NCBI GenBank assembly: GCA_963846575.1
Contig: CAWJWJ010000001.1
Coordinates: forward strand, 320,001 to 384,000
Source: an uncultured Nitrospiraceae bacterium
Lineage (GTDB): Bacteria; Nitrospirota; Nitrospiria; Nitrospirales; Nitrospiraceae
Reading direction: 5' to 3'
Length of the DNA: 64,000 nt
Shown: positions 2,856-27,987 of the stretch, in pieces
Layout: each line of letters starts with the position of its first letter
Numbering within the stretch: the stretch's first letter is position 1
Program-made: the position numbers and the translations under genes
Notes under the pieces: model-generated
What the model was told of the DNA's origin: nothing
What the model saw: the letters and a program-made list of their open reading frames with translations, nothing else
Database searches by the model: none

Positions 2856-3185
2856 TTATTTTGCCACGAAGTGTTCGCGACGGCTTACCGCCACGTCACT
2901 GACGAACAGGGTCCCGGAATGTTTGGTAAATATGGGGCTGAGTCCGGCCAGGATCGGCTCAATCCGCTCCTCCGGCACGACCGTAAATACGATGACCTGG
3001 CTGCTGGTATCATTGAACAACAGGTGCCCCTCATGGAATCCATGATGCCCTTTTCCCGACACGCTGTTGATGATGGTATACCCGGTCGCGCCGACGCGAT
3101 CGAGCAGGTCCGTCACGAACTTCAGGTGCTCGCCTTGCATCACGATCTTAATTTCTTTCATGGGATGTAGCGTGAGTCCGCCCAT
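2856..3185 (-). CDS. PII-superfamily regulator (SbtB-like) associated with the DAB pump
   Basis: MKEIKIV..LLDRVGATGYTII..SGKGHHG PII-like signature, about 109 aa, directly downstream of and overlapping dabA. Confidence 0.85.
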   Translation of the reverse strand: MGGLTLHPMKEIKIVMQGEHLKFVTDLLDRVGATGYTIINSVSGKGHHGFHEGHLLFNDTSSQVIVFTVVPEERIEPILAGLSPIFTKHSGTLFVSDVAVSRREHFVAK

Positions 3186-6100: not shown

Positions 6101-6420
6101 GAGAGCTCACGTCCGCCGAACAGGACGCGCTTCTCCACCGTGATGGAGGCGAGGACATCCGTGAGATCCTCGGCGCGAATGCGGCCCTGCTCAAAATACC
6201 GCCGGTACGTGGCAGTGGGGAGATAGCCCTGGCCCCCCAGCAGTTGCTCACCCCGCTTCACGGCTCGATCGAAGGGCAGTTCTTCCAGGCCATGAAGAGG
6301 ATTGTGGTGAATGAACGTCCGCATGGGCCAATAATGCGCGATCGCCTCACCGGCCAACTGCACATAAGAGCGCAGTTCCATCCGCTCTGTGTCTGAAGTT
6401 CTGACCTGTGCAGTACTCAT
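3148..6420 (-). CDS. dabA: DabA / DUF2309 beta-carbonic-anhydrase-like subunit of the inorganic carbon pump
   Basis: WPMRTFIHHNPLHGLE N-terminus; Zn ligands in CIDVRSE, CAHGS and LDCGACGG; DWAQVRPEWGL; HEPMRL. Start placed at 6420 behind an AGGAG RBS. Confidence 0.95.
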   Translation of the reverse strand: MSTAQVRTSDTERMELRSYVQLAGEAIAHYWPMRTFIHHNPLHGLEELPFDRAVKRGEQLLGGQGYLPTATYRRYFEQGRIRAEDLTDVLASITVEKRVLFGGRELSHLEVLRLSMIHGLGELPPEPSEPSVREDDPVARLTAWLTTALNETVDRFLVPLTPWEPVELPTREPLSVWCDRTLGTEIVSTINEQMIKWCSAFLDEGEASWTMPRREEKFYRAWKALAQYDSSLGLLGVKNGPNKIAALEDRSDDALLQSLAIMGIPKLNWESYLSWHLSALPGWTGFIKWRSDEQYYPWQATYPIDLVKYLAVRLFYERELVSLHCEEKLGIAGCFDAIRNYMHSVPYGYWLRRELVSGKLSRAAAAQAQALVRARTRPPQEWEAVGKEIYEETAKARAQETARTLARQLLALARATSVTAEAILETTPSDVTTLLNWLEGFPPAQQGRRWLQAMEARHRHHVVAKLEGALEQLRATGHHPGVTQRSRPLAQMVHCIDVRSEVFRRHLENRGGYETFGLAGFFGIPLEYQSFGAEHSVTHCPVLLKPKNQIREIPRSYHGETAERHRFAAQLTKAGHALLHDLKENVITPYVMVEALGWFFSLPLFGKTLCPLWYHRVKQWLTEIFLPPLATTMTIDKLTREEAVEIVAAEQRAHIRQILLDEFHLRGSSVTPALIETIRIRVLEGLEDHKNGNVAETLGISPADEDALYERLRQQLNITPRGISSRLARITQNGFSVAEQAYGVEAGLRLMGFTSNFARLIVFCAHGSTSDNNPYESALDCGACGGNNGLPNARAFASMANRPSVRDLLKARGIKIPSDTHFLAAEHDTTCNEVRIVDMEDVPATHRKDLSRLLADLKEAGAQAALEHGIALDGLSAAQQAGVAQMRAQRRSTDWAQVRPEWGLSKNSLLIVGRRDVTRTLDLEGRAFLHSYDHRQDDSGKLLEAIMTAPLVVAQWINMEHYFSTVDNEVYGSGSKVYHNVVSRVGVMSGVSSDLRIGLPAQTVFNGAEPYHEPMRLLTVIEAPRERIRAIILKHPLLERLFDLEWVSLVALDPDDAKMYQYEVLTGWTALHGEGGAADGRTHATSHERN

Positions 6421-6458
6421 TCCGCTCCTGTCTGTTTCCGGTCCGTCTCGCCGTGCGG

Positions 6459-8123
6459 TTAGGTCCGTCGGCACTGTCTTCCTACGGCACGAACGAGATC
6501 CTCAACGTAGAGGCCGTTGAGAAAGGCCACGTACGCCCTCACGCGAACACGCTCTACCCATGACGGCATCAAGAGTCTGATTCCATGTGCCCTGCCGTAA
6601 ATGAAGATCCATGCCGCGACGATCAGCAAGGCAGACACGATGACGAATACGTCGAACAGGCTTTGATTCCACCCGGCGGCTTGGAAGTAGCCGGCGGCCG
6701 TTCCCGGCACCGGATATAAGAAATGTGTGAAGGCGTTCCCTGCCCAGAGATACGTAACTCCGATCAGCGACAACGACCCGAGCATGGTCAGGGACACCTT
6801 CCAGGAGGCCACGCCTTGTAGACGATACAAACTGAACACCGCCTGTGACGACGTCACCCAGCCGAAAAAGAGGAAGATCACCGATCCCTGCTCCTCGAGC
6901 AAGGGAATCTGCACGAGACCATGCGCGGCAAGCAGAATAATCAGCGGCAAAATAAGCGTGACTGCAAAACCCGTTGCCCAGGTGACCGGCGAAAAAGACT
7001 TGGCCTCCTCCACCTCCGAGACCGGCGGCAGTTTGAACTCCTCTCTCGCCTTGTGGATATTCGCTCCGGAGTTTAAGAACAGGGTGGCCTTAAACAGGCC
7101 GTGCGCGCAAAGATGGAAGACCGCGAGCGCGAAAGCGCCTAACCCGCACTCCATCACCATGTACCCCATCTGTCCCATCGTGGAATAGACGAGGGTCCGT
7201 TTGATGCTGGCCTGCGTCAACATCGTCGTAGCGCCGATCAAGGCCGTGAGCCCCCCGATCAGAAACATCAGATGCAGCGTCGTCGGCGCGAGCCCGTAGA
7301 GGGGCGCCATCCGGTTCACCAGAAACCCTCCGGCATTCACAATTCCGGCGTGCAGGAGGGCGGAGACGGGCGTCGGTGCCTCGATCGTCCCCGGCAACCA
7401 GATGTGAAAGGGAAACTGCGCCGACTTGGTCATCACCGAGAGTAGCAGGAGCAGGGTCGTGAGCGAGGACACATAGACCTCCGCCCCCACCAGAGGAATG
7501 GACAAGAGCGCCGGCGCCGCCTGGAGTCGACTGAACAGCTCGCTCAGCTCGAACGTGCCGTAGGCCTGATGCAGCACGACCAGCGCGCAGAGAAATGCCG
7601 CGTCGCCGATCCCTTGTATCCATAACGTTCTCCGGGCGGCTTTTCCCGCGGCCGGACTCGAAGAATTAAAGGCCAGCAGCGCGGCGAGCAGCCAGGTGAT
7701 CAAATGCCACCAGACAAACAACCAGAGCAGATTCCCGCTAGTCACAAGACTCAATAAGACGAACGTCAGGATTCCCAGGAGGGCAAAAAATCGAACATAG
7801 CCTCGATCACCCACCATGTACCGTGCGGAATACACATGGATGAGCAGGCTCACCAGACTGATCAGAACCAGCATGACGGCGGCCAGCCGGTCAACGACCA
7901 GCGTGTAGTCGAGTGCCCCGGACGGTAGGCCCCAGAGAACGAGGCGAATAGTCGCCCCTTGAACCACCAGCACCAGGGTCGAGAGGGAGGCCAGCGCAGC
8001 TATCCAGAGCGATACGATTCCGATCCGGGCCGTACGCTCGCCGAGATCCAGTCCGAAGGCCTTGATCAAAAGGGCACTGACCAACGGCGCAAAGATGGCG
8101 ACAAGGGGGATTATCGATTCCAT
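6459..8123 (-). CDS. dabB: DabB / NuoL-like proton-translocating membrane subunit
   Basis: Multi-TM protein with KSAQFPFHIWLP..EAPTPVSALLHAGIVNAGG, YSTMGQMG and HLCAHGLFKATLFL; adjacent to dabA. Start placed at MESIIP (8123) behind GGAG. Confidence 0.93.
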   Translation of the reverse strand: MESIIPLVAIFAPLVSALLIKAFGLDLGERTARIGIVSLWIAALASLSTLVLVVQGATIRLVLWGLPSGALDYTLVVDRLAAVMLVLISLVSLLIHVYSARYMVGDRGYVRFFALLGILTFVLLSLVTSGNLLWLFVWWHLITWLLAALLAFNSSSPAAGKAARRTLWIQGIGDAAFLCALVVLHQAYGTFELSELFSRLQAAPALLSIPLVGAEVYVSSLTTLLLLLSVMTKSAQFPFHIWLPGTIEAPTPVSALLHAGIVNAGGFLVNRMAPLYGLAPTTLHLMFLIGGLTALIGATTMLTQASIKRTLVYSTMGQMGYMVMECGLGAFALAVFHLCAHGLFKATLFLNSGANIHKAREEFKLPPVSEVEEAKSFSPVTWATGFAVTLILPLIILLAAHGLVQIPLLEEQGSVIFLFFGWVTSSQAVFSLYRLQGVASWKVSLTMLGSLSLIGVTYLWAGNAFTHFLYPVPGTAAGYFQAAGWNQSLFDVFVIVSALLIVAAWIFIYGRAHGIRLLMPSWVERVRVRAYVAFLNGLYVEDLVRAVGRQCRRT

Positions 8124-8531
8124 GTATAGTGGCTCCGTATAAAAAACACGGGATGTACGCAGGCAGATCAGCAAAAACAGGACATGACGATCCTCTTTGG
8201 TACGACCCGAGGCCAGTCCAGTGACGGGTGAATCGATCGCCGGTCAAAACGGGCAATCGTCCGGGAGACTTGAGTGGGCCTCCCGGGCCTCAGCGCACGT
8301 ACGTCAAGCGGTGCAGACCTCCTGGTGAACGGGCCAGAATGGATTCCTGAGAAGCCGATCGGACAGTCGCCGTGCGTTAGCAGTGATCCACAACTCCCGG
8401 CGTGCCCCCGACGCAGCATCGAACGAAGGGAGAGAGGATCCCTCTGATTCAGAACATTCCACATCACAACACGACGTCTTTCTCAGGGCAGGTTCTGCCC
8501 GCAACCTCACATCCGTCTCTGTGCGAACGTG

Positions 8532-9291: not shown

Positions 9292-9924
9292 TCAAGGTGC
9301 GAATCGAGCCCAATTCGGATAGGGTTTCACCGCGTACAATCGATCCACATCCGCCTGACAGGGCATTCCGCAGCGGCGCAACATGTCTGCCACCAGACGA
9401 AGCGGGAGGCCGACGGCGGCCGTGTAATCGCCGTCGATGTGATCGATCAACTCCCCGCCGGCGCCTTGAATGGAATAGGCACCGGCTTTGCCGAGACTCT
9501 CGCCGGTCCCCAGGTACGCCTTCAGGATGGCCTCGTCGAAGGGCTTCATCGTGACCCGCACGGTCGCAACCTCGACGTTGCAGCTCCCCTGACCGGCACG
9601 GACGAGGGCGACGGCGGTCACAATGTTGTGGGGTTTCCCTGCCATGCGCCGGAGCATGGCTTCGGCTTCGGCCAGGTCCCGCGGCTTCCCTAACACCTCC
9701 GAGCCCAGACTGATCAAGGTGTCGCTCCCGAGGATGAGCCCATCGAGAGGTGCGGCAAGGCAGGAGCGGGCCTTGCCCTCGGCAAATTCGGCTGCCTGCC
9801 GGTCGGCGGACAGCGCTGGCCTCACCTGCTCAACATATGGCGGACTCATCACGGCAAAGGGCACGCCGAGAAGTCTCAACAATTCATGACGTCTCGGCGA
9901 GGTGGAAGCCAGAATCAGCGGCAT
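9292..9924 (-). CDS. maf: Maf-family nucleoside triphosphate pyrophosphatase
   Basis: LILASTSPRRHELL, GSDT, LGKP, GKAGAYSIQG, VGLP. True start at MPLILAS (9924). Confidence 0.93.
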   Translation of the reverse strand: MPLILASTSPRRHELLRLLGVPFAVMSPPYVEQVRPALSADRQAAEFAEGKARSCLAAPLDGLILGSDTLISLGSEVLGKPRDLAEAEAMLRRMAGKPHNIVTAVALVRAGQGSCNVEVATVRVTMKPFDEAILKAYLGTGESLGKAGAYSIQGAGGELIDHIDGDYTAAVGLPLRLVADMLRRCGMPCQADVDRLYAVKPYPNWARFAP

Positions 9925-9928
9925 GGGC

Positions 9929-11110
9929 TCAGGACGCGCAGGGCAGAAGGGGCCGAGTCTCGCAAGAAGGCGTCTCAAGCGGATCCTGCCCATCCATAAG
10001 GTCGCCGCAATAATCCGCCACCACGCGCTCGACCTCACGGGCATTCGCAACCTGAAACATCTTGCCTCGCATCGCGGCGGCATGAGGAAACCCTGTGCAG
10101 TACCAACCAAGATGTTTGCGGATGGAACGGAATCGCTCCAAGCCGGCGATGGCTTCATACTGCCGCGCGTGATCCAGCATCACCTGCATCCGCTGCTTGA
10201 GTGAGATCTGCGGCTCCCAGGCATGGGTGGCAAGTCCCGACAGGTCAGCCCGGTCCGCGAATGCCCGGCGGGCCTTTTCCTTTTCACGAAAAAACCATGG
10301 GGCGCCCAGCGTTCCCCGACCAACCAACACACCCTGCACGCGAGTCTCCACGGTGCGGCGGATGGCTTCCACCAAGGTATTGAGATCGCCGTTGCCGAGG
10401 ATGAGGGTGTCCGTCCCACAGGCCAGCTTGGCCGCTTCGGCGATGGCAGACCAGTCGGCGGCTCCTCGATACATCTGCTGCAGCGTCCGCCCGTGCACCG
10501 TGATCGCCGCGGGTGCGGCCTCCAACAAATGCTCGACCCATCGGCCGACCACCACGCAATCAAACCCCAGTCGAGTTTTGATCGAGAGCGGCAGCAGCCG
10601 GCGGGCAACAGTCGGCACACCGGATCGACTCAGGTTCAATCTCTGAATGAATTCAATGCGGGAGGGCTTAAATCCTTGTGTCTCGATCGATTGACCGTCG
10701 GCCCAGTCGTGAAGCCCTTGCTTGGCAGCCCGCACGATGGCATGGGCCACATCCGGCGTCTTGATCAAGGCCGCCCCTGATCCGGAGGCCGCCACGTTCT
10801 TCGAGGGACAGCCCATGTTGATGTCGAGTCCATCGAATCCCATTTCACAGACCACCTGGGCCGCGCGGTAGAACAGCTCCGGATCCTTGCCATACAATTG
10901 CGCCACGACGGGACGTTCAGCCTCGCTGTACACCAATGACGACAACAGATGATCCGGACCGCGACAGATTTCGCTCACATTGGTGAATTCGGTGAAGGTG
11001 ATATCAGGCCGTCCCTGTGTGGCCACCACCCGACGAAAGGTGGCGTCAGTCACGCCGTCCATCGGGGCCAACCCCAGAATCGGTTGCGGAAGCGTCGCCC
11101 AGAAGTTCAT
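9929..11110 (-). CDS. dus: tRNA-dihydrouridine synthase
   Basis: LAPMDGVTD, DINMGCP (catalytic Cys), KTRLG, TVHGRT, GNGD, RKHLGWY. Confidence 0.93.
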   Translation of the reverse strand: MNFWATLPQPILGLAPMDGVTDATFRRVVATQGRPDITFTEFTNVSEICRGPDHLLSSLVYSEAERPVVAQLYGKDPELFYRAAQVVCEMGFDGLDINMGCPSKNVAASGSGAALIKTPDVAHAIVRAAKQGLHDWADGQSIETQGFKPSRIEFIQRLNLSRSGVPTVARRLLPLSIKTRLGFDCVVVGRWVEHLLEAAPAAITVHGRTLQQMYRGAADWSAIAEAAKLACGTDTLILGNGDLNTLVEAIRRTVETRVQGVLVGRGTLGAPWFFREKEKARRAFADRADLSGLATHAWEPQISLKQRMQVMLDHARQYEAIAGLERFRSIRKHLGWYCTGFPHAAAMRGKMFQVANAREVERVVADYCGDLMDGQDPLETPSCETRPLLPCAS

Positions 11111-12585
11111 CCCCGCACCTCCTCCGACTCGACCGGTTCGTTCGCCGTACGGTACGCTGCCCGCAACTCCACGGACTCTTCCATGGCGGTGGCGGCGGCG
11201 GAAGGACAGCCGTCGGCCACGAACTCGACAAACCGGTCGACCTTGAGGAGGAAAAAGTCATAGTCCTCCTCTTCCGGCCTCGGTGTGCTGAACCAGAACG
11301 CGGTGAACCGCTCGACCGGAAGATTCGCCGCCGTGATGAGCTGGCAGGTCCGCGGAAACATATCCGTCAATTCGCCACCCCAATGGAGCAACTCTTGAGG
11401 AACATAGGTCTGGCGATACCGATCCAGATCCTCGATCGATCCACCCAGCAATGAAAGACCTGCTGGTACCGGGCGACGGTCAGAAGTCACGAGTGCCACA
11501 TAGTCTTCATACTGTCGCACAAGCGTCGCCATTTCGTCGGATGCCACACTCGCATTCTGCGCAGAAGCCGGCAGAGCCTGTCTGGCCCCTCCCTGCAGGA
11601 ACTCGACACGACCCGCCTGGCCTGAGTATCGAACCTTCGACTCAAACCGGTCGCTAAAGCGCCGAAACTCCGTCACGATCTCCGTGACCGGTTTGGTGTC
11701 GACCTCCAATGCCACGCCTTTCAATGCGGTTAGCCGCGGATGGGCCAGGACCTGAACCAACAGGTCAAACAAGACCTCAGGAATGGGACTCCCATGGCTA
11801 TCGATCCAATAGGGCAATCCCGGGAGTAGCGCATCATGTTCAGAACCGGGATGCCTGGCCAATGGTGCCAGACCGGCCACATGAATTTCGATGACCCGCT
11901 CCATCGGAAAAGCATCCAGAAACCCCGCAACAAAATCCTGCAGCGCCTGACTGCGCCAAACACCCGTGTACCGGTAGACAGTCCACAAATGGCCGATGTC
12001 GAGGACCAGCCCGCAGGCCACCCGTTCTGTCACGGCACGGAAAAAATCGGGAATCCCGGATGAGCCGCAGGCGAAATAGGTCAGCGGCGGCATCTCCAGC
12101 AGTACCAGTGCAGGGGCGCGTCCTGCACGTTGCCCCCATGCATCCACTCGTCCCTGCACATATTCTAAATTGTCGGCCGTTATCCTGGCCGATAGCTCCG
12201 TATACAACGGGGGTAAGTATGTGCCGAATGCGTAGCCGCCAATTTGTTTCGACGCGCATTCATGATTCAGCCATGCGCTCTCCAGCGTGCCGACCTGGAT
12301 ACAGGCCTCCGCAACCCCGTGCTGCCCCGAGAAGCTCCGGGCAAAATGAGGCTGGGTCAGCCATAACCCTTCGCCGTGATAGGTGAGCTTCAGTTCCGGA
12401 AGCCGGCGCCGGACCCACCGCAGCGCGGACGTCGTCGCCTTGAAGATCTCCAAGTACCCCGGTTGCAATCCTTCTTCGCGGAGGCTTCGGACGAGCTCCA
12501 TGAGGTCCGGAGTATAGACATCCACCGACAGCCCCAACCCATGCGCCGGGATCAGATTCGCACGTTGTGAGAATTCGCTTTCCAT
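11107..12585 (-). CDS. DUF692 family multinuclear non-heme iron enzyme (MNIO) with C-terminal extension
   Basis: GLGL start, YHG, LLEMP, LVLDIGH, EIHVAG, IDSHG and ALEVD match the DUF692 metal-ligand pattern. Stop overlaps the dus start (ATGA). Confidence 0.82.
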   Translation of the reverse strand: MESEFSQRANLIPAHGLGLSVDVYTPDLMELVRSLREEGLQPGYLEIFKATTSALRWVRRRLPELKLTYHGEGLWLTQPHFARSFSGQHGVAEACIQVGTLESAWLNHECASKQIGGYAFGTYLPPLYTELSARITADNLEYVQGRVDAWGQRAGRAPALVLLEMPPLTYFACGSSGIPDFFRAVTERVACGLVLDIGHLWTVYRYTGVWRSQALQDFVAGFLDAFPMERVIEIHVAGLAPLARHPGSEHDALLPGLPYWIDSHGSPIPEVLFDLLVQVLAHPRLTALKGVALEVDTKPVTEIVTEFRRFSDRFESKVRYSGQAGRVEFLQGGARQALPASAQNASVASDEMATLVRQYEDYVALVTSDRRPVPAGLSLLGGSIEDLDRYRQTYVPQELLHWGGELTDMFPRTCQLITAANLPVERFTAFWFSTPRPEEEDYDFFLLKVDRFVEFVADGCPSAAATAMEESVELRAAYRTANEPVESEEVRG

Positions 12586-12775
12586 CGTGTCGCGTTTGGC
12601 ATACTTTGAGGTGAGCATAGTGACTATAGTTCTTGTGCAGTCTAAGCGCCTAACCTCTTGGTTGACAAGGGAAGATGGGGAAGCTGATCCAACAAATCGA
12701 TCTGGTATACTTCCTTTCGACGTGGAGGTTGCCGGACCGGAAACGTCAGCCTCTCTCGCGGCGAGAAACAGGCTT

Positions 12776-18517: not shown

Positions 18518-19684
18518 TTACGGGTGGGACGGAACATGCTGAGACCGGAACGCCGACGCTCTCGCGACGGCCTCTGCACGCGTCGATGCAAGAAACGTAA
18601 TGTGGCCCATTTTTCGTTTCGGCCTGACGGTGCGCTTTCCATACAGATGCAGCACCGCGCCCGGCTCGCGCAACAACGCCTGCGTGGCAGGCGCGGCCGT
18701 GAAGAGAGCCACTTCGTCGCCGATCAGATTGACCATCACGGCGGGGGTGAGAAGCCGCACCTCGCCCAAAGGTTGGCCACACAGGACCCGTACCTGCTGT
18801 TCGAACTGCGACACGGTACAGGCATCCAACGAATAGTGGCCGGAATTATGCGGCCTGGGCGCGACCTCATTGACCAGGAGTCGACCGTCTCTCATAAGGA
18901 ACAGTTCGACGCAGAAGACTCCGACGCCGTCCAGGGCTTGCACTGCTCTTCGTGCCATTGTCGCAGCCTGCTCTGCGACTGACGCCGACACATCCGCCGG
19001 AACCGTGGTCTGGCGAAGCATGCCATCTTCATGGAGGTTTTCGACGACCGGGTAGGTGCGCGTCTCTCCATCGACACTACGTACGACCAGAATGGAAATT
19101 TCGCGTTCGAAGGAGAGGTATTGCTCCAGGATCCAACGTGATCCCGGTCTCATGGTCCGGGTCATATCCAGTTGAGCCTCGGCACAATCCTCCGCACGCC
19201 CGATTTTCCATTGCCCCTTGCCATCGTATCCGGCAGTCGCGGTCTTACAGATCAGCGGGTATGCGAGTCGAGTCTGCCGGGCGAGTTCCTCCGGTCTGGT
19301 GATCGGATGGAATGCCGGCACATCCAATCCACGCTCGCACAGAAACGCCTTCTGTTCAATTCGATCTTGAATCACACGCAGCACATGGCTCGACGGCCGG
19401 ACCGGCACCAACAGTTCTAATTGCTGGCAGAGGTCGCTCGGCACATTTTCCCACTCATAGGTGACGGCACGAACACGCTGCGCAAATTCCTGACGGGCGA
19501 CCACGTCGGAGAACGGCTTGATGAGGGAGTAATCAGCGGCACGGTGGGCGGGCGCTTCGGCATCGGGATCCCATACCGCAACCTCAAAGCCCATGCGGCG
19601 GGCGGTCGTGGCGAACATGGCACCCAACTGCCCTCCGCCGAGGACACCCAGAGTGGCTCCGGGTTCGATGACCGGCTCGTTCAC
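18518..19684 (-). CDS. purK: N5-carboxyaminoimidazole ribonucleotide synthase
   Basis: [45 protein letters not shown]. Confidence 0.97.
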
Positions 19685-20247
19685 GATCGGCGGCTCGGCT
19701 TTTGGTGGCGCGTGGTGAGAAAGGGAGGCGTGAGCCGGGCATCGTCTTGCGAGTCGAGCACCGATTGCGTTTGGGAGGCACGGAACTGCTCCAGCCGGCG
19801 CCTGATTTTTGCCGACCGTACTCCGAGAATCTGTCCGGCCAGGATGGCGGCATTCTCGGCTCCTCCAATGGCGACCGTCGCAACCGGAATCCCTCGAGGC
19901 ATTTGCACGATGGATAACAGTGAATCCAATCCGCGTAGATGTTCGGTGGGAATAGGAACCCCGATGACAGGCAATGTAGTTTTAGCCGCCAACATTCCGG
20001 GCAGATGAGCCGCCCCTCCCGCTCCGGCGATAATGACCTGGATGCCTCGCTCCGCTGCCTGCTCCGCGTAGGCGAAGAGGCGATCGGGCGTGCGGTGGGC
20101 CGATACCACCAGGAGTTCGTTGGGAATCCCGAGTTCGTTCAGCATCGCCACGGCCTTCTCGAGAACGGGAAAGTCCGATTTGCTTCCCCCGAGCACTCCG
20201 ATGACGGCCTGACGCACCCTGTTCTGATTTGGCATTCGCGCGGTCAC
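19681..20247 (-). CDS. purE: N5-CAIR mutase
   Basis: [40 protein letters not shown]. Confidence 0.97.
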
Positions 20248-20410
20248 CTTTGCTCGAAAGGGAGGTGGAAAGGGCCAAACCTTAGCCGTTCTACGGTCGA
20301 AGGGTCAAGCCTGTCGCCGGAAGAAGCCAGCATTAAATTGACCGGCTCCCCGGATATCCTCTATGATAAATCTCATTTTCGTGCAGCCTGCTGTGCTCAG
20401 GGGGTGAGAC

Positions 20411-21847
20411 GTGCAGCGTATCCGCGAAGGACTCAGGAACAGGATCCGCTCCTTCGTCACCCAACACACGGGCCTGGACGAAATGGCCGTCGATGACCTT
20501 GCCACATCGACGAAATTGCAGTCCTGGGAAGCCGTCCAAATTCCGGAACGGCTCCGGTTCTCGTCCCGCCTGGCCATTCTCCTGGTCGGGCTCTTCATCC
20601 TGATCGTCGCGTTTGTCCCCTGGACCCAAACCATCACGGTCACCGGCCAACTCTCCGCCTATTCGCCCTTTGAACGGCCGCAGGATATTGAAGCGCAGAT
20701 TACCGGTCGCATCAAAAAATGGCACGTCTTCGAAGGCGTGCGCGTCACAGCCGGAGACGTGATTCTCGAACTCGAAGACTACGATCCAAGTTTCATGGCG
20801 CCGGATCTCCTCGGCTTGCTCGAGCAACGGAAGAAAGCCTTGGAGGACACCCGCAAGGCCGCGCTGAGTCGAGCGGACCAGTTGGAGAAGCGGATCAAGG
20901 AGATGCAGAACCTCGTCAAGGCGGCGGTGCCCTCGGCCGGCGCCCGGATCCAAGAGGCAGAAAGCAAGGTGCGTGAAGCACGGCAGAAGATCGAAGCCGC
21001 CAAAATCGCCGTGGCGACGGCCGAACTCAATAGGGCACGTCACCAGGAACTTGCCAAGAAAGGCCTCGTATCGCAACGCGAGTTGGAACTCACCATTCAA
21101 GCCGCCATCGCCAGCAAGGCTGATTTGCAAGGCGCACAGGCCAACCTCAGCGCAGCCGAGCAGGGCATGAAGGCGCTGGGTTTCGGACGAGACCAGGTGA
21201 GCGCTGAAATGCTCCAACGACTCCTTGACGCTGAAGCTTCGCGGGACGCGTCCATCGGAGAAGCGGCGAAAGCTGCCGATCAGGTCGCCGAGGTGTCCTT
21301 ACGACTCTCCAATGCGAATCAGCGCCGGGTGGCCGGACGCATTCTCTCGCCGATCGACGGAACCGTCGTGAAGATGGTGCAGGCCGGCGCGGGCGAAACG
21401 GTTCGGCCGGGGGATAAACTGGTGAGAATTTCCCCCAGCAGCGCGGACAAGGCTATCGAAATGGTCGCCGACGGTATTGATGCTCCGTTGCTCAATGTCG
21501 GGCGAAAGGTGAAGATCCTTTTCTATGGCATCCCTGCCATCCCATTGCCGGCCTGGCCGGAACTGATGGCCGGTACCTATAACGGCGTGATCAAGGTCAT
21601 CGACCAGGTGGATGACGGGAAAGGAAACTTTCGCTTCTGGGTGGTCCCCGATCAGGAAGAGCGACCCTGGCCGCCGCAAGAACATGTCCGACAGGGAACG
21701 AAGGCCATGGGATGGGTCATTCTCAACCGGGTCCCGCTATGGTATGAACTGTGGCGCCGTTTCAATCTGTTTCCGCCCGACTATCAGGAACGGCCCCCGA
21801 GTTTGATCGATACGCTCTTGCCGAAGGCCGGGCGAGGAGCCAAATAG
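20411..21847 (+). CDS. HlyD-family periplasmic adaptor (membrane fusion protein)
   Basis: Single TM, lipoyl-like half motifs (IEAQITGRIKKWHVFEGVRV; SPIDGTV), long coiled coil, C-terminal VPLWYELWRRFNLFPP. Confidence 0.9.
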   Translation: MQRIREGLRNRIRSFVTQHTGLDEMAVDDLATSTKLQSWEAVQIPERLRFSSRLAILLVGLFILIVAFVPWTQTITVTGQLSAYSPFERPQDIEAQITGRIKKWHVFEGVRVTAGDVILELEDYDPSFMAPDLLGLLEQRKKALEDTRKAALSRADQLEKRIKEMQNLVKAAVPSAGARIQEAESKVREARQKIEAAKIAVATAELNRARHQELAKKGLVSQRELELTIQAAIASKADLQGAQANLSAAEQGMKALGFGRDQVSAEMLQRLLDAEASRDASIGEAAKAADQVAEVSLRLSNANQRRVAGRILSPIDGTVVKMVQAGAGETVRPGDKLVRISPSSADKAIEMVADGIDAPLLNVGRKVKILFYGIPAIPLPAWPELMAGTYNGVIKVIDQVDDGKGNFRFWVVPDQEERPWPPQEHVRQGTKAMGWVILNRVPLWYELWRRFNLFPPDYQERPPSLIDTLLPKAGRGAK

Positions 21848-21924
21848 CACTTTCCCCCTGACTGGCGCGATCGTACCGAACGCTTCATCTCCTCGATTCT
21901 TACTCTTCCGAAAGGAGTGGCCTG

Positions 21925-23415
21925 ATGAAGAAGTCTATATGGGTATTGGTTCTGGCAGCCTGTGCACTCTGCTGGCTCCCCGAAGGGAGCGTGGCCGGGG
22001 ATGACGCCGGCAAATCCAGAACGCTTCCGCCGATTCCCCTTTCATTAAACGAGGTATTGGCCTGGATCGATCGATCCCATCCCCTGCTGAAGGGAGCCGG
22101 CACCGAAAAGGTTTCGGCGCGCGGCAAAATGCTCAAAGCCCTGGGCGCGTTCGAGCCGGTATTTATCAACGACACCGAGATCGAACGTTTTATCGAAAAA
22201 GGTACGTCCAAAACCCAAAGCGTAGGATTTAACGATACCTTGGTCGAAGCACGGACGCCCTGGGGATTCCGTGGCAGCGCGGGCGTCCGGCAGGCCATCG
22301 GCGAGGCGAGAATCCCCGACCTTTCCTTCGGCAACGGCAATCAACAGGTCATTCTCGGCGGCTTTCTGCCTCTTCTGAAAGGGCTCATGGTGAATCCTGA
22401 AAACGCCGAGCTCCAGCGCTCGGAGCTGGCGGATCCCCGTGCCGATGTGAAGATTTCTCAAACGAGACAGGACCTGTTCCTCGCCGCAGCCAGCCAGTTC
22501 TGGGATTGGGTCTCTTCCGCCAAATTCGTGGATATACAACGCCGGGCCCTGGGCGTCGCGGAGGAACGGTTGAAACAGGTTGAAGGCAGGGCAAAGGCCG
22601 GGGCCGTGGCACCGCTGGATGTGGTCGAGGCCGGGCAGGAAGTACAGCGTCGACGCGAGGTCTCAATCGCCGCCCAACGAGCGATCGAACAGGAGCAGTA
22701 CCGGATGTCGATGTTCCTCTGGGAGAACCAGGCGCCGAGCGCCCCCCAACTCGATCGCGCGCCGGACTTTCCTCCTTCAGCCGGCGCCCCGACGGCGGAA
22801 ACCGTCAAAGCCGACAAACTACAGGCCAAAACCGATCGCCCGGAGATTCGCGAGGTCGAGATCGAAGCGAAGGTTAACAATATCGATTTGGAGTTAGCCA
22901 AAAACAATCTCCTGCCCAGTCTGGACCTCGAAGCCGCGCCGGCACGCGCCCCGGAGAAATTCGTACTCGGGCTCGGCTACCGGTTTGGAGTGGAACTGCG
23001 CATGCCAATCCTCCAGCGGAGGAGCCGGGGAGAAGTCTTGGAAGCACAAGCCCAGGCCGATCGTCTGGTTCTCGTCCAGAAATACCGTGAGCAGCAGGTC
23101 GTCGTGGATGTCGATAACGCCCTGTCGGCCATCGAGCGGGCCAAAGAACGGGTGACCGCGGCTTCGGAATCCCTCCGCATGGCCAAAACGCTGGAAGAAG
23201 GCGAGCGGTTCCGGTTCAGCCTGGGGGCCACGAGCGTGCTGTTTGTGAACTTACGTGAACGGAACTCCGTCGATTCGGAAATGCAACTGGTACGGGCCAA
23301 AGCGGATTATCAAAAGGCGCTGGCCCTCTACCAGTGGGCCACGGGCACCTGGGCGAGAAGTCAGCCGTCGGCTGTGCCGGTCAACTATCGGATCGGTGCA
23401 GGCGTCTCCAAATAG
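21925..23415 (+). CDS. TolC-family outer membrane factor
   Basis: Signal peptide, two OEP helical repeats, RFSLGATSVLFVNLRE. Confidence 0.9.
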   Translation: MKKSIWVLVLAACALCWLPEGSVAGDDAGKSRTLPPIPLSLNEVLAWIDRSHPLLKGAGTEKVSARGKMLKALGAFEPVFINDTEIERFIEKGTSKTQSVGFNDTLVEARTPWGFRGSAGVRQAIGEARIPDLSFGNGNQQVILGGFLPLLKGLMVNPENAELQRSELADPRADVKISQTRQDLFLAAASQFWDWVSSAKFVDIQRRALGVAEERLKQVEGRAKAGAVAPLDVVEAGQEVQRRREVSIAAQRAIEQEQYRMSMFLWENQAPSAPQLDRAPDFPPSAGAPTAETVKADKLQAKTDRPEIREVEIEAKVNNIDLELAKNNLLPSLDLEAAPARAPEKFVLGLGYRFGVELRMPILQRRSRGEVLEAQAQADRLVLVQKYREQQVVVDVDNALSAIERAKERVTAASESLRMAKTLEEGERFRFSLGATSVLFVNLRERNSVDSEMQLVRAKADYQKALALYQWATGTWARSQPSAVPVNYRIGAGVSK

Positions 23416-23551
23416 TGGCATTTTGCGCGATGCTCTGTTAACGTTTGTCGAATGACGGGATCCTGTGCCGACGGGCTCCGATCCACGATGTGAGACTCCT
23501 CTCCCCTAGTCCGGGCAAGATGTCGGGAGAAGCCCGGTAGGGGTGGCAGCC

Positions 23552-25219
23552 ATGGCAGAAGACCGGTCCGACAAACAAATTAATCTTTTTCAAACGGTCG
23601 TCGGCCACCTCGGCCTCCTGATCCGCATGGAACGGCGGATCCTGGGCCTCATCTTTTCCTATTCCATCGCCATCGGGCTGTTTGCGCTGATCGTTCCTCT
23701 CACCGTTCAAGAACTTGTCAATACGTTTGCGTTCGCCATCCAGCCCATCACGATCGTGACCCTCGCGGTGGTAATGGTCACAGCCCTGTTGTTCGTCGGC
23801 GCGTTCCGCGCGTTGCAGTATTACGCTGTCGAAGTGCTGGAACGGCGAGTGTTCGCCCGCGTCGCCATTGCGATGGCCCAGCAACTCCCGCATCTGCGAT
23901 ATCAGGGGTTCAAGCCCCGTTACGCTAATATCTTCATGGAAACCATCCTGATGCAACGGGCCGTCTCGGTCCTGTTGGTGGACTTGATCAACGTGGTCGT
24001 GGGTGGCGCGGTCGGCATGTCCATCCTGGTCTTCTACCATCCGTATTTTCTCCTCTACAACGCCATCCTGCTGCTCGGGTTCAACGTGGTGTTCTTTCTG
24101 ATGAGCCATGGCGGCCTCAGGGCCGACCTGGACCTCTCTCATGCAAAATACGACACGTTGCACTGGTTTCAAGAAATCGCCTACAACCTGCTGCACTTCA
24201 AATCGACCGACAGCCAGACGCTCCTGATCAGAAAAACCGATCAGCTGGTGGATACCTACATCAGCGTGCGCAAGACCCGGTTCGGCGTGTTGATCCGGCA
24301 GTACCTGGGATCGGTAGGATGGCAAGCCATCGCGCACAGCGGCCTGATAGCGACCGCCGGCTGGTTGCTCGGAATCGGCCAACTGACACTCGGACAATTT
24401 GTCGCAGCCGAGGTGGTGGTCAGCGGAATTTTGTCGAGCTTCGACGGGGTGGTAAAGCGGATGGGACATATCTACTATTTCCTGACCGCACTGAGCGAAC
24501 TGAACTTTCTGTTCTCGCTACCGAAAGATCAAGATACCGCGAGCCTCGCCATTCCGCTTCCCGATCCGACCGTGCACGGCATCCGGGTTACCTGCAAGGA
24601 TCTGACCTTCTCCCCCCCGGGCGGCACACCCGTGTTCGAGCACTTCGATCTGGAAGTCACGCCGGGCGAAAAGATCGGCATTTATGCCGAGACGACGAAG
24701 GCCAAAACCGTGCTGGCCCGTGTGCTCGGCGGTTTGGACTCCCCTACCTCCGGTGTCATCCGCTACAACGGTGTGGACCTGCGACATCTCAATCTTGATT
24801 CGGTGAACCGATTCAGAGGATTCATTCTAGACTCCCAATTATCGCTGTTCGAAGGTACGCTCGAGGAGAACATCGTGCTCGGCCGGGACTACATTCCCTA
24901 CAGCGACTTGCGCTGGGCGCTCCGGTTTGCGGAACTCGAAGAAGAAGTCGATGCCTTGCCCCAGGGTTTGAAAACGCATATCCGGAACACCGGAAAGATT
25001 TTCGCGCCCACCCACATCGTACGGATCCTCGTGGCGCGGGCCATTCTGGGCCGGCCTCAACTCCTCATATTCGAGGGAATCCTGCACAATATGCCGTCGG
25101 CGATGCGGGAAACTATCATCAGGCGACTGTGCAGCAAGGAGGAACCCTGGTCCGTGATCTTTGTCTCCAATGATCCCAACCTCACCTCGCATGTCGACCG
25201 CCGCATCATGCTCAGTTGA
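23552..25219 (+). CDS. ABC exporter subunit 1 (TMD plus degenerate NBD)
   Basis: ABC-membrane domain (LIVPLTVQELVN..LTLGQFVAAE) and NBD fold (LFEGTLEENI, LPQGL, ARAILGRPQLLIF) with non-canonical Walker A and signature. Confidence 0.88.
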   Translation: MAEDRSDKQINLFQTVVGHLGLLIRMERRILGLIFSYSIAIGLFALIVPLTVQELVNTFAFAIQPITIVTLAVVMVTALLFVGAFRALQYYAVEVLERRVFARVAIAMAQQLPHLRYQGFKPRYANIFMETILMQRAVSVLLVDLINVVVGGAVGMSILVFYHPYFLLYNAILLLGFNVVFFLMSHGGLRADLDLSHAKYDTLHWFQEIAYNLLHFKSTDSQTLLIRKTDQLVDTYISVRKTRFGVLIRQYLGSVGWQAIAHSGLIATAGWLLGIGQLTLGQFVAAEVVVSGILSSFDGVVKRMGHIYYFLTALSELNFLFSLPKDQDTASLAIPLPDPTVHGIRVTCKDLTFSPPGGTPVFEHFDLEVTPGEKIGIYAETTKAKTVLARVLGGLDSPTSGVIRYNGVDLRHLNLDSVNRFRGFILDSQLSLFEGTLEENIVLGRDYIPYSDLRWALRFAELEEEVDALPQGLKTHIRNTGKIFAPTHIVRILVARAILGRPQLLIFEGILHNMPSAMRETIIRRLCSKEEPWSVIFVSNDPNLTSHVDRRIMLS

Positions 25220-25409
25220 CCGACTGCCGCATGAATCTCCCGACGCGCTGGTCGCCCGGAATCTCGCTCCCCGAAGCCGCTGCCATGAATGCCCGGCCCA
25301 TACCCCGTCGCGGTCCTGAGGACGGGACACCGGAACGGTCGGCCTCCTTGACAGACCTCCTGCGTTTCCTCAGACTGCCTTCGTGCAGCACGCCGACGCG
25401 AGTATCCGA

Positions 25410-27086
25410 GTGACTCACACTGCCACTGAGGCACCCCTTCCCACCCTGTCGGCCTGGACCGTCCTCGCACGCCTGAACCTGCTGGTCGGACTCGAACATC
25501 GTATTCTGATTATCATCGTGTCCTATGCGGTGGTCATCGGCCTGTTTGCCCTGATCATCCCGCTCACCGTGCAGGAACTTGTCAACACCTTCGCCTTCGC
25601 AATCGAACCCATCATGATCGTGACCCTGGCTGCGATGATGCTTGGAGCGCTGCTCTTCATGGGGGCTTTCCGGGTGCTCCAGGCCCGTGCCATGGAAATT
25701 CTGGTCCAGCGTCTCTATGCACGCCTCGCTGTCGCCTTTACCGAAACCCTGCCCCGCATCCGAGAAAATGTCTTTCTCCCTGAGCATACCAATGCCTTTA
25801 CCGAAGCGGAACTGCTCCCGCGCGCCCTGGTCGCGCTGCTCACTGACATTGTCAATGTGTCGGTGTCAGGCGTGATCGGCATGACGATTCTGGTGATGTA
25901 CCATCCCTATTTTCTCGGCTATAACACTTTGCTCATTGCAAGCTTCGGCTTCCTCCTCACCATCTTCGGCCGAGGGGGACTACGCATCACGCAACGCGTC
26001 TCTCACTTACACTATCAGACCTTTCACTGGCTGCAGGACATCGGCATTAACCGGCTCCACTTCAAGGCCACCGACAGCCTTCCCCTGCTTCTCAAAAAAA
26101 CCGATGCGCTCGTTCAGGCCTACGTCATGGCGCGTAAGACGCGCTCCGACATCTTGACCGGCGGGCAATACAAAAGCGCCGTCATCTTCCAGGCGTTCGC
26201 ACACAGCGGCATGATCGGACTGGGCGGATGGCTGCTGTCGATCGGGGATATTACCCTCGGACAATTCGTGGCCGCCGAAGTCATCGTGGGAACCCTGCTC
26301 CTGAATCTCGACACCGTGGCCCGCCGCATGTATGCCGCGATTTATGTCGTTACGTCACTCGATGAATTGTCGAAGCTCTTCGCGCTTCCCAAAGAGGAGA
26401 CCTCCCATTCCCTCACCGCATCCCTCCCCGACCCGTCGCGGAGTGGCGTGCGACTCACCTGCAAGGACGTGGCCTATGACGCGCCGGATGGATCGCGACT
26501 CATCGAACACTTTAATCTGGAAGTCATGCCGGGCGAAAAAATCAGCGTCCTCTCGCCTACCAGCACAAGTAAGACGGCGCTCGCATTGATTTTGGCGGGG
26601 TTGCACCATCCGACCGGAGGGGTGATTCGCTACAACGACGTGGACCTGCGGGACGTCTCGCTGAGTTATGTGAATCGATGCCGGGGGCTGATGCTGGATT
26701 CCCAACCCAGTTTGTTCGATGGAACCCTGGAGGAGAATATCACCTTGCAGCGGCCTTCGATCCGATTTGACGACCTGAGCTGGGCGCTCCGATTCGTGGA
26801 ACTGGAGGAGGAGGTCGATGCACTGCCGCAGGGATTGGAAGCCCCCGTCCGCGGAAACGGTGTGAATTTCACCCGAAGCCAAGTGTTGCGCGTGCTCCTG
26901 GCACGGATGATTGTGACCAAGCCGCGACTGCTGGTGTTTGACGGCAGTCTTCACAATATCGAACCCGGACTCCGGGTGACCTTACTGCGCCGGCTCTGTT
27001 CCAAGGAAGAAGCCTGGTCGGTGGTCTTCGTCTCCAATGATCCGGAGATTGCACAATTGGTGGAACGACGCGTGACTCTCGCCTGA
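25410..27086 (+). CDS. ABC exporter subunit 2 (TMD plus degenerate NBD), paralog of subunit 1
   Basis: Shares IGLFALIxPLTVQELVNTFAFAI, TLGQFVAAEV and LRFxELEEEVDALPQGL with subunit 1. Start uncertain (25383 or 25410). Confidence 0.88.
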   Translation: MTHTATEAPLPTLSAWTVLARLNLLVGLEHRILIIIVSYAVVIGLFALIIPLTVQELVNTFAFAIEPIMIVTLAAMMLGALLFMGAFRVLQARAMEILVQRLYARLAVAFTETLPRIRENVFLPEHTNAFTEAELLPRALVALLTDIVNVSVSGVIGMTILVMYHPYFLGYNTLLIASFGFLLTIFGRGGLRITQRVSHLHYQTFHWLQDIGINRLHFKATDSLPLLLKKTDALVQAYVMARKTRSDILTGGQYKSAVIFQAFAHSGMIGLGGWLLSIGDITLGQFVAAEVIVGTLLLNLDTVARRMYAAIYVVTSLDELSKLFALPKEETSHSLTASLPDPSRSGVRLTCKDVAYDAPDGSRLIEHFNLEVMPGEKISVLSPTSTSKTALALILAGLHHPTGGVIRYNDVDLRDVSLSYVNRCRGLMLDSQPSLFDGTLEENITLQRPSIRFDDLSWALRFVELEEEVDALPQGLEAPVRGNGVNFTRSQVLRVLLARMIVTKPRLLVFDGSLHNIEPGLRVTLLRRLCSKEEAWSVVFVSNDPEIAQLVERRVTLA

Positions 27087-27204: not shown

Positions 27205-27987
27205 GTGTCACTGGCATCGCGACTGAAGTTATCCGTTCCCACCGGCAACCAATTGCTCATCAGCATTCTGATCGGAGCGCTGGGATGGATGAGCGGCCAG
27301 GCGCTCAGCCGAATCGATCAGGATCTGCGGATCATGTACACCGAATACACGTTGGGTGCGGCCGACCTCGCACACATTTCGGCCGACGTGATGCGCTATC
27401 GGAATACGATCATCCGGTCGCTGGAAGCCCAAAACCAGAAAACGTTCGAACGGATCACCGAGTCCCTGCCCTCGCAACGGGCGCGCATTCAACATGCCGT
27501 GGATCGATATGCCGCCGCCGGCCTCCGCGTGTCCAGAAGCGGCCGGAGCGAGGAAAAAGACATCCAGGCCGTGCGCGAAAGCCTGGACCAGTACTTCCAC
27601 GTGGCCAGTAAAACCGTTGATTTGCTGACTCAGGAATGGTCCGCGAGCTCGACTGCGGCGGCGACAGAGCTGCGGCGCAAAGCGGAAATTCATGCCGCCG
27701 ACAACGGGGGACCGAAGATCATGCAGGTGAGCCTGGCGCTCGACCGGTTACTGGAGACGGTCTCGGAAGTCGCGAAGGACATGCGTGACGAAGGAACCAT
27801 CACGATTCGCAATACGAGCTATTGGATTGTCGGAGGCAGTTTCTTCATCGCCCTGTTGAATCTGTTCTTGGCTTCGTCGTTACGGCCGCTCGCGGCTCCG
27901 CCTGCGAAATCAGAAGAACCCACTCGAACCGGGTCTCCCAGGCCCCTGCCGAATGACAGGCCGAATCCCGCGCTGCGAACCGACTGA
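27205..27987 (+). CDS. Stand-alone four-helix-bundle (4HB/MCP-type) sensor-domain membrane protein
   Basis: TM, helical periplasmic region (IDQDLRIMYTEYTLGAADLAHI), TM, then a short Pro-rich tail. Confidence 0.7.
   Translation: MSLASRLKLSVPTGNQLLISILIGALGWMSGQALSRIDQDLRIMYTEYTLGAADLAHISADVMRYRNTIIRSLEAQNQKTFERITESLPSQRARIQHAVDRYAAAGLRVSRSGRSEEKDIQAVRESLDQYFHVASKTVDLLTQEWSASSTAAATELRRKAEIHAADNGGPKIMQVSLALDRLLETVSEVAKDMRDEGTITIRNTSYWIVGGSFFIALLNLFLASSLRPLAAPPAKSEEPTRTGSPRPLPNDRPNPALRTD

Follow-up and report, generated by a model that had tools for sequence, protein, structure and literature searches.

Hydrolysis of ATP is the defining property of ATP-binding cassette (ABC) exporters, and the asymmetric ones among them still keep one working site. 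In the portions of the sources that we consulted (PMC7756269, PMC8277102), the heterodimeric exporters TM287/288, TmrAB, IrtAB and TAP retain one hydrolysing site; in HlyB–HlyD–TolC (PDB 7SGR/8DCK) and PrtD (5L22), a type IV ABC half-transporter, an adaptor and an outer-membrane factor are brought together in one operon. A 64,000-nucleotide stretch from an uncultured Nitrospiraceae bacterium (contig CAWJWJ010000001.1, positions 320,001 to 384,000; hereafter the window) carries an operon of this architecture, hlyD-tolC-abc1-abc2, whose two ABC subunits are 54% identical and very probably lack ATPase turnover. We tentatively read it as a conduit driven by an ion gradient.

In architecture the exporter is like type I secretion and tripartite efflux systems, but it departs from them in its ATPase motifs, its cargo and its scores against curated models. 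Unlike HlyB and PrtD, the window's ABCs have no catalytic motifs, no C39-like domain and no RTX cargo, and they score 78 against a cut-off of 726 for TIGR01846; their family has an invariant glutamate in transmembrane helix 6 (TM6) and relatives that have no nucleotide-binding domain (NBD). Scores against the curated type I secretion models TIGR01846, TIGR01842, TIGR03375, TIGR01843 and TIGR01844 all fall far below cut-off. With TM287/288, TmrAB, IrtAB and TAP the window operon shares the fold and a tandem pair of paralogous genes; in contrast to these, neither of its sites is intact and its second ABC gene is dispensable. The NHLP two-ABC bacteriocin exporters (TIGR03796/TIGR03797) and PCAT1, which likewise combine two ABCs with an adaptor, give the best or near-best NCBIfam matches, but the window scores 107–115 against cut-offs of 709–853 and the operon has no peptidase domain, precursor or modification genes. 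PF00005 is the sole Pfam domain of the window's ABCs, which have no N-terminal C39 peptidase; the N-terminal domain of long family relatives resembles peptidase C39 (Atlas score 0.91–0.92), a lead only, and gave no Pfam C39 match. Among the 60 solved matches listed, HlyB (7sgr, positions 16–708) is the only protein that spans the whole family profile. Our search of the accessible literature found no description of this exporter family.

We read the motifs of ABC1 and ABC2 from alignments to solved ABC proteins and to four exporters with canonical motifs that the genome also encodes. A sequence-only reading of this DNA had given Walker A as AETTKAKT, the signature as FAPTH, Walker B as LLIFEG and the switch as SN in ABC1, and as SPTSTSKT, FTRSQ, LLVFDG and SN in ABC2, with neither NBD keeping the catalytic Glu or the switch His; the alignments agree throughout, with the switch reading SND in both and Gly and Asn at the positions of the catalytic Glu and the switch His. 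Both subunits retain the Walker A Lys-Thr and have lost the P-loop glycines; the Walker B Asp is kept in ABC2 and is Glu in ABC1, the D-loop reads LHN in both and LSGGQ is absent from both, so that neither carries the catalytic combination of GxxGxGK[ST], LSGGQ, Walker B DE and switch His. This is not peculiar to the window: among 29 Nitrospiraceae NBDs, none has the catalytic Glu, the switch His or the first P-loop Gly, and GK[ST] occurs in five. An AlphaFold model of ABC2 (pLDDT 87) predicts a full type IV exporter fold with the NBD folded intact, and matches IrtB, HlyB, TM287/288 and PrtD at about 15–19% identity. Because relatives have also lost the Walker A Lys or dropped the whole NBD, ABC1 and ABC2 very probably do not hydrolyse ATP, and the earlier proposal of an ATP-hydrolysis-independent conduit stands as far as hydrolysis is concerned.

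The degenerate domains are under selection. The names of homologs indicate Nitrospira. A match was present in 24/24 genomes of the genus and 29/33 Nitrospiraceae genomes, in 2/13 genomes of a second family of the order Nitrospirales, and in 0/154 other Nitrospirota genomes searched with the same query. Ratios of nonsynonymous to synonymous substitution (dN/dS; pairwise Nei–Gojobori against the window, orthologs limited to 70–99.5% identity) were 0.038 for the adaptor (n = 7), 0.039 for TolC (n = 30), 0.053 for the membrane domain and 0.046 for the NBD of ABC1 (n = 25), 0.099 for ABC2 (n = 22) and 0.098 for its NBD (n = 7). All four exporter genes (0.04–0.10) are therefore at or below purK (0.109, n = 7), and the orthologous clusters show both sites degenerate, no canonical Nitrospiraceae NBD and dN/dS far below 1, in keeping with the earlier argument for selection rather than decay. 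Chance or decay as the source of the dead motifs is ruled out by the 24/24 presence, the absence of catalytic Glu or His from all 29 NBDs and the low dN/dS. Among ABC1 orthologs, K388, D430, A488-P489, H515-N516 and N543-D544-P545 are invariant in the NBD (120/120).

We searched for loci with a pattern that included Glu290 of ABC1 and selected further loci by profile. Beyond Nitrospirota, a HlyB-like family at about 30% identity was found in 43/201 Bacteroidota, 24/151 Myxococcota and 23/251 Planctomycetota genomes and in 124/201 genomes of Planctomycetia, and also in Nitrospinota, Vampirovibrionia, Acidobacteriota and Gemmatimonadota. The 168 family sequences that we aligned, with a few genomes represented twice, form a series: the catalytic set of Walker A GK[ST], Asp, Glu and His persists in 25, another 140 are eroded (88 with GK[ST] but not the full set, 27 with the Lys only and 25 with the Lys lost) and three have no NBD. 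Full-length homologs from marine Nitrospirales and Nitrospinota retain the Walker A Lys in 1/101 sequences and have Arg instead in 94/101. The 13 best matches to a 339-residue marine Nitrospirales query were all NBD-less, with lengths of 329–346 residues, identities of 77–100% and proper N-termini; two such loci, when inspected, had no NBD remnant, and one NBD-less pair gave a dN/dS of 0.24 over the membrane domain. No close separate NBD gene was found in the genomes of NBD-less members, where the best candidates were 29–34% identical, and a split gene supplying these genomes was accordingly rejected. A Bacteroidota operon (our locus L172) has lost its NBD independently, with the adaptor gene still coupled. 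That NBD-less members persist suggests that the family's job is possible without an ATPase domain of its own. In a FastTree phylogeny of the membrane domain, rooted on five canonical exporters and with one fragment dropped, catalytically intact clades are interspersed with eroded ones, which implies that catalysis would have been lost several times independently. Three sequences titled 'Alcaligenaceae bacterium' (L107, L118 and L125) group with Planctomycetota in this tree; the L118 genome also draws Planctomycetota as its phylum, and the label of all three is probably wrong.

The earlier reading took ABC1 and ABC2 as the two halves of a heterodimer, and an obligate pair of this kind is not supported by the distribution of abc2, by single-ABC operons or by the tree. 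The gene is adjacent in 21/24 relatives from the genus; G012 has only a short remnant of it, the remnant in G023 is broken and G016 lacks it, and the deficient genomes include the two closest ABC1 matches. A single family ABC gene is found in 12/16 Nitrospiraceae operon loci with a visible adaptor and in all 80 profile-selected loci from three other phyla, a sample made up of 40 of the 44 Bacteroidota matches, 20 of the 24 Myxococcota matches and 20 of the Planctomycetota matches; two family ABC genes occur in 4/72 adaptor-bearing pattern-selected loci, two further double counts being unrelated ABCs. In the membrane-domain tree, ABC2 clusters not with ABC1 but with orphan paralogs elsewhere in Nitrospira genomes, and those that we examined are all dead too. 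The single-ABC operons and the position of ABC2 therefore make a homodimer the most likely working unit. Because the HlyB–HlyD complex contains three HlyB dimers per six HlyD in the part of the source consulted (PMC11026475), ABC1 and ABC2 could, by analogy, be separate dimers within one assembly.

In the membrane domain, Glu290 in TM6 and Arg243 are present in 168/168 family sequences, Gln253 in 165/168 and an acidic residue at position 147 in 161/168; position 290 is V, L, N, L and L in five canonical exporters. Hydropathy and the helices of the model place Glu290 in what appears to be the periplasmic half of TM6. In the sources that we consulted, ion coupling by ABC membrane domains devoid of an NBD was shown on engineered truncations: LmrA-MD and MsbA-MD carry out proton-coupled transport and depend on carboxylates in the membrane, and LmrA requires Glu314 in TM6 (PMC2704374, PMC4979069). 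The likeness to our family lies in its conserved membrane carboxylates. The differences are that LmrA-MD and MsbA-MD were made in the laboratory by truncating ATP-active multidrug exporters and have neither an adaptor nor TolC, whereas NBD loss in the family is natural and repeated and its ion coupling is only proposed.

We propose that the operon specifies a working conduit across the envelope, built like a type I secretion system but no longer hydrolysing ATP, a natural counterpart of LmrA-MD and MsbA-MD. ABC1, most likely as a homodimer, would form the inner-membrane pathway and HlyD would couple it to TolC; ABC2 would be an optional extra dimer or partner, and the NBD may be retained as a folded structural or regulatory domain. 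Membrane potential or a proton or sodium gradient would drive a small ionic solute by way of Glu290, Arg243 and the acidic residue at 147, in a setting of CO2/bicarbonate shortage or of the pH or ion load that accompanies inorganic-carbon uptake. Judged from the sequences, gradient-driven transport of a small solute is evenly poised between true and false, a role in carbon or pH homeostasis comes just short of an even chance, and the whole reading, a hydrolysis-independent, gradient-driven conduit serving inorganic-carbon or pH homeostasis, lies a little further below it. A broader version seems rather unlikely. In it, a widespread type I secretion-like family would have switched repeatedly from ATP-driven export to an ion-gradient conduit, with natural ABC exporters devoid of an ATPase domain as the end point. 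It would be an overlooked part of bacterial CO2/bicarbonate acquisition that spans the envelope and, together with DabAB, carbonic anhydrase and SulP, carries bicarbonate, hydroxide/protons or a counter-ion through both membranes.

The proposed setting comes from gene neighbourhoods, which, like the wider family, lay outside the sequence-only reading. We ran Pfam on 126/347 neighbour open reading frames (ORFs) of the pattern-selected loci and labelled the rest with profiles of our own that may overlook other classes of carbonic anhydrase. In two genomes (G028 and G031) a LysR gene heads an operon hlyD-tolC-abc-dabB-dabA; G028 also has SulP close by. The Obscuribacterales exporter is flanked on one side by carbonic anhydrase, SulP and accBC-like (biotin-carboxylase) genes and on the other by an ArsR-dab cluster, and one Bacteroidota operon reads SulP-carbonic anhydrase-abc-hlyD-tolC. 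Of the 90 Planctomycetia genomes with both exporter and dabA, six have dabA immediately upstream in the same orientation, at 301–1175 bp, and in seven the two lie within 4 kb against about 0.2 expected, although kin are not independent here. The presumed purE and purK, which we named from motifs recognized in their ORF sequences rather than by a family scan, flank the window operon divergently; PurK uses bicarbonate. Homologs of purEK are likewise found next to family operons in Planctomycetota and Myxococcota, and as members of dabB-dabA operons. Two Myxococcota operons (L213 and L214) consist of a small winged-helix regulator, purE, purK, dabB and dabA, which places purine synthesis that depends on bicarbonate beside the carbon pump. 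Across 137 loci the commonest exporter neighbours were TetR (24), LysR regulators that we take to be NhaR-like (17), small winged-helix proteins (16) and ArsR (14), and 7/20 separate dabA loci from exporter-bearing genomes gave strong matches to the exporter-flanking winged helix-turn-helix or NhaR-like LysR families, two of these seven also having purE-purK. Adjacency to dab, carbonic anhydrase, SulP or purEK genes lies above chance, which suggests a non-random linkage, yet it is confined to a minority of loci.

DabAB and the exporter are alike in recurring as operon neighbours and in having regulator families in common; they differ in that the proteins are unrelated and each is found without the other. 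Two spot checks of genomes with the exporter found DabA in 0/5 and 4/5, and the link is therefore not an obligate one. Nor does DabAB need the exporter, since every Nitrospirota genome examined carries a DAB pump according to the part of a survey that we consulted (PMC13147460) and most Nitrospirota genomes that we searched have no exporter. The accessible part of the DAB preprint (bioRxiv 10.1101/476713) does not contain the term 'tolC', and its sole 'ABC' is UvrB. In Planctomycetia, a short DabA (about 830–900 residues, in the order dabB-dabA) tracks the exporter and a long DabA (about 1050 residues, in the order dabA-dabB-SulP) does not. A small HPF/S30AE-like gene often stands just before the ABC gene in Planctomycetota (L078, L079, L096, L097, L099, L103 and L105) and just after dabA in L221 and L222. 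The window's genome (G000) has two dabA genes and one SulP, with no beta-class carbonic anhydrase match by our own profile or queries; its second dabA, on contig C2, has a dabB-like gene 5.5 kb away, with sensor kinase-like and response regulator-like ORFs between them.

Several observations weigh against a gradient-driven conduit for inorganic carbon. The reading rests on sequence and genomic context, and it offers no reason for a small ion to require a TolC bypass. The pattern used in the search itself included Glu290, which makes the pattern-selected loci circular for this residue, although it is also present in all sequences from profile-selected loci, in 120/120 ABC1 orthologs and in 101/101 marine homologs. 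Glu290 and Glu314 of LmrA probably do not occupy equivalent positions, and Glu290 is probably nearer the periplasm. The invariance of the Walker A Lys in ABC1 orthologs, together with constraint on the NBD equal to that on the membrane domain, argues that the dead NBD does something. Most loci show no carbon linkage: carbon genes lie within 4 kb in 9/57 loci and in 6/80 of the unbiased, profile-selected loci, compared with 2.4% of random positions in this genome. DabA co-occurrence at phylum level (10/43 versus 1/158, 17/23 versus 24/228 and 12/24 versus 8/127) is largely confounded by lineage and drops to 90/124 versus 46/77 within Planctomycetia (p = 0.06); because it is largely gone within one class, we do not use it as main support. 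Short DabA co-occurs strongly (34/36 genomes, among the matches listed), but the split was made post hoc. The linkage holds for catalytically intact members too and therefore bears on the role of the family, not on the loss of ATPase. In the window itself, the dabB-dabA pair (3148–8174, minus strand) is 12 kb upstream of the exporter operon, the neighbouring purEK may reflect ordinary synteny, and no regulator gene borders the operon; our own profiles found no close winged helix-turn-helix or TetR homolog in the window's genome, and no operator common to the exporter and dabB promoters was evident by eye.

These reservations leave room for other explanations, the first of which keeps a use for the nucleotide site. 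As in CFTR or SUR, ATP or another nucleotide could bind unhydrolysed and open or close the pathway; the invariant Walker A Lys and the new invariants D430, H515-N516 and N543-D544-P545 of ABC1, the 88 family sequences that keep GK[ST] but not the full catalytic set, and the intact NBD fold of the model would all fit. Yet the P-loop has lost its first Gly throughout Nitrospiraceae and mostly its GK[ST], the marine sister group mostly has Arg for the Lys and NBD-less clades persist, so that we give nucleotide gating an outside chance. A canonical ABC might instead supply the ATP cycle to dead dimers within a three-dimer assembly of the HlyB/HlyD type, and many Nitrospira carry orphan paralogs that, because they lack an adaptor of their own, suggest shared assemblies. 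But every orphan examined is also dead, a search for an active family paralog elsewhere in the window's genome found no other member, the next ABC matches there being 22–29% identical, and the canonical exporter that resembles HlyB comes with an adaptor of its own; powering in trans appears to have a slim chance. Both ideas had been raised by the sequence-only reading, and both are weakened because the genomes of NBD-less members have no close separate NBD.

The family's relation to HlyB, the sole match to its whole profile, and the C39-like domain of its long members could also point to ATP-independent secretion of a protein or peptide encoded elsewhere and pulled by proton-motive force or extracellular folding. 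The window's ABCs have no such domain, however, and no cargo-like neighbour recurs across 137 loci among ORFs of 90–100 residues or more, smaller peptides not having been searched; as the earlier reading noted, no RTX substrate is nearby, no window protein having at least three RTX repeats. The genome's single multi-repeat RTX protein adjoins canonical HlyB-like and HlyD-like genes of its own and was rejected as an orphan cargo, so protein secretion retains a small chance. The RTX locus (G000:C2:2655578-2667688), which encodes a 2134-residue protein with 35 RTX-type repeats, is an ordinary type I secretion locus. Alternatively, the assembly may transport nothing, and either tether both membranes or relay a signal from the four-helix-bundle (4HB) protein whose gene is tightly linked to the operon in Nitrospiraceae; orphan paralogs also adjoin histidine kinase and sigma54 regulator genes. 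The invariant polar and charged residues of the membrane domain fit a substrate pathway better, and loci outside Nitrospiraceae yielded no 4HB gene, which makes a scaffold or sensor similarly improbable to powering in trans. That the locus is a decaying pseudo-system is barely credible: abc2 is decaying in G012 and G023 and the family's distribution is patchy, but decay of hlyD, tolC and abc1 is refuted by dN/dS, the family is present in nearly all genomes of the genus and family Nitrospiraceae, and the promoter is conserved. Orphan dead-ABC genes lie upstream of histidine kinase and sigma54 regulator genes in L041, L044 and L045 (about 9300–11000), and pyruvate:ferredoxin oxidoreductase-like genes come next in L044 and L045; a second orphan dead-ABC gene lies near genes for an Alginate_exp-type porin, a methyltransferase and glycosyltransferases in L040, L046 and L048–L050.

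A hydrolysis-independent conduit would matter for what the family allows to be compared. Its members form a natural series, fully canonical at one end, partly eroded in between and NBD-less at the other, that shares one kind of adaptor and TolC, which makes the purpose of ATP hydrolysis in these exporters directly testable. Were the carbon link true, nitrifiers, planctomycetes, Bacteroidota and myxobacteria would have an outer-membrane-spanning component for inorganic-carbon handling. The present analysis contributes four points: ABC2 is dispensable, the erosion of the NBD has been counted down to a clade that lacks it, a glutamate in TM6 is invariant, and the carbon link has been examined across phyla, its limits included.

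Table 1. Features of the exporter operon and its surroundings, in window coordinates.
Feature	Position	Strand	Evidence
dabA, inorganic-carbon pump (context, outside operon)	3148-6474	-	PF10070, E 9.5e-266 (dabAB scan)
dabB, inorganic-carbon pump (context, outside operon)	6459-8174	-	PF00361 (dabAB scan)
purE-purK, presumed; divergent neighbour (context)	18518..20247	-	ORF sequences
Probable divergent purE-purK promoter (TTGACC-18-TAAGGT)	20279..20308	-	Conserved alignment blocks; coordinates counted
Sigma70-like operon promoter (TTGACC-18-TATGAT)	20338..20367	+	Promoter scan, 10/12 matches
HlyD-like periplasmic adaptor, 478 aa	20411..21847	+	HlyD_3; TIGR01843, E 1e-20
TolC-like outer-membrane factor, 496 aa, N-terminus hydrophobic	21925..23415	+	OEP, E 1e-30
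ABC1, core type IV exporter half, NBD predicted dead	23543..25219	+	
ABC1 TM6 Glu290	24410-24412		
ABC1 Walker A	24686-24709		
ABC1 signature	25001-25015		
ABC1 Walker B	25061-25078		
ABC1 switch Asn	25169-25171		
ABC2, dispensable paralog, NBD predicted dead	25383..27086	+	
ABC2 TM6 Glu299	26277-26279		
ABC2 Walker A	26553-26576		
Stand-alone four-helix-bundle (4HB_MCP_1) sensor-domain protein	27205..27987	+	dN/dS 0.092, n=7

The four exporter ORFs are intact and co-oriented at the positions first reported for them, in the order hlyD-tolC-abc1-abc2 rather than the TolC-HlyD order under which they had been named, and the four-gene unit as described had its genes right and missed a fifth co-oriented gene, that for the 4HB protein. 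ABC1 probably starts at the ATG at 23552, giving 555 residues, the length of most homologs. The adaptor has a single N-terminal membrane helix and family-specific C-terminal motifs. In an alignment of 18 Nitrospiraceae purE-hlyD gaps, the operon promoter could be discerned by eye in every one; it stands back to back with the probable purE promoter, which was not called by the promoter scan and is visible as conserved alignment blocks. The 4HB gene follows the last ABC gene in 18/18 Nitrospiraceae operon loci, with a gap of 9–14 bp in six. No signalling domain was found in its product, a sensor protein of chemoreceptor type that is strongly conserved in Nitrospiraceae; its Atlas cluster has 1071 members, and Verrucomicrobiota have similar clusters. 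Elsewhere in the window, a 503-residue protein (11107–12618, minus strand) has an MbnB/TglH/ChrH domain (E 1e-11), of a type that modifies ribosomally synthesized and post-translationally modified peptides (RiPPs), and is encoded beside Dus and Maf genes.

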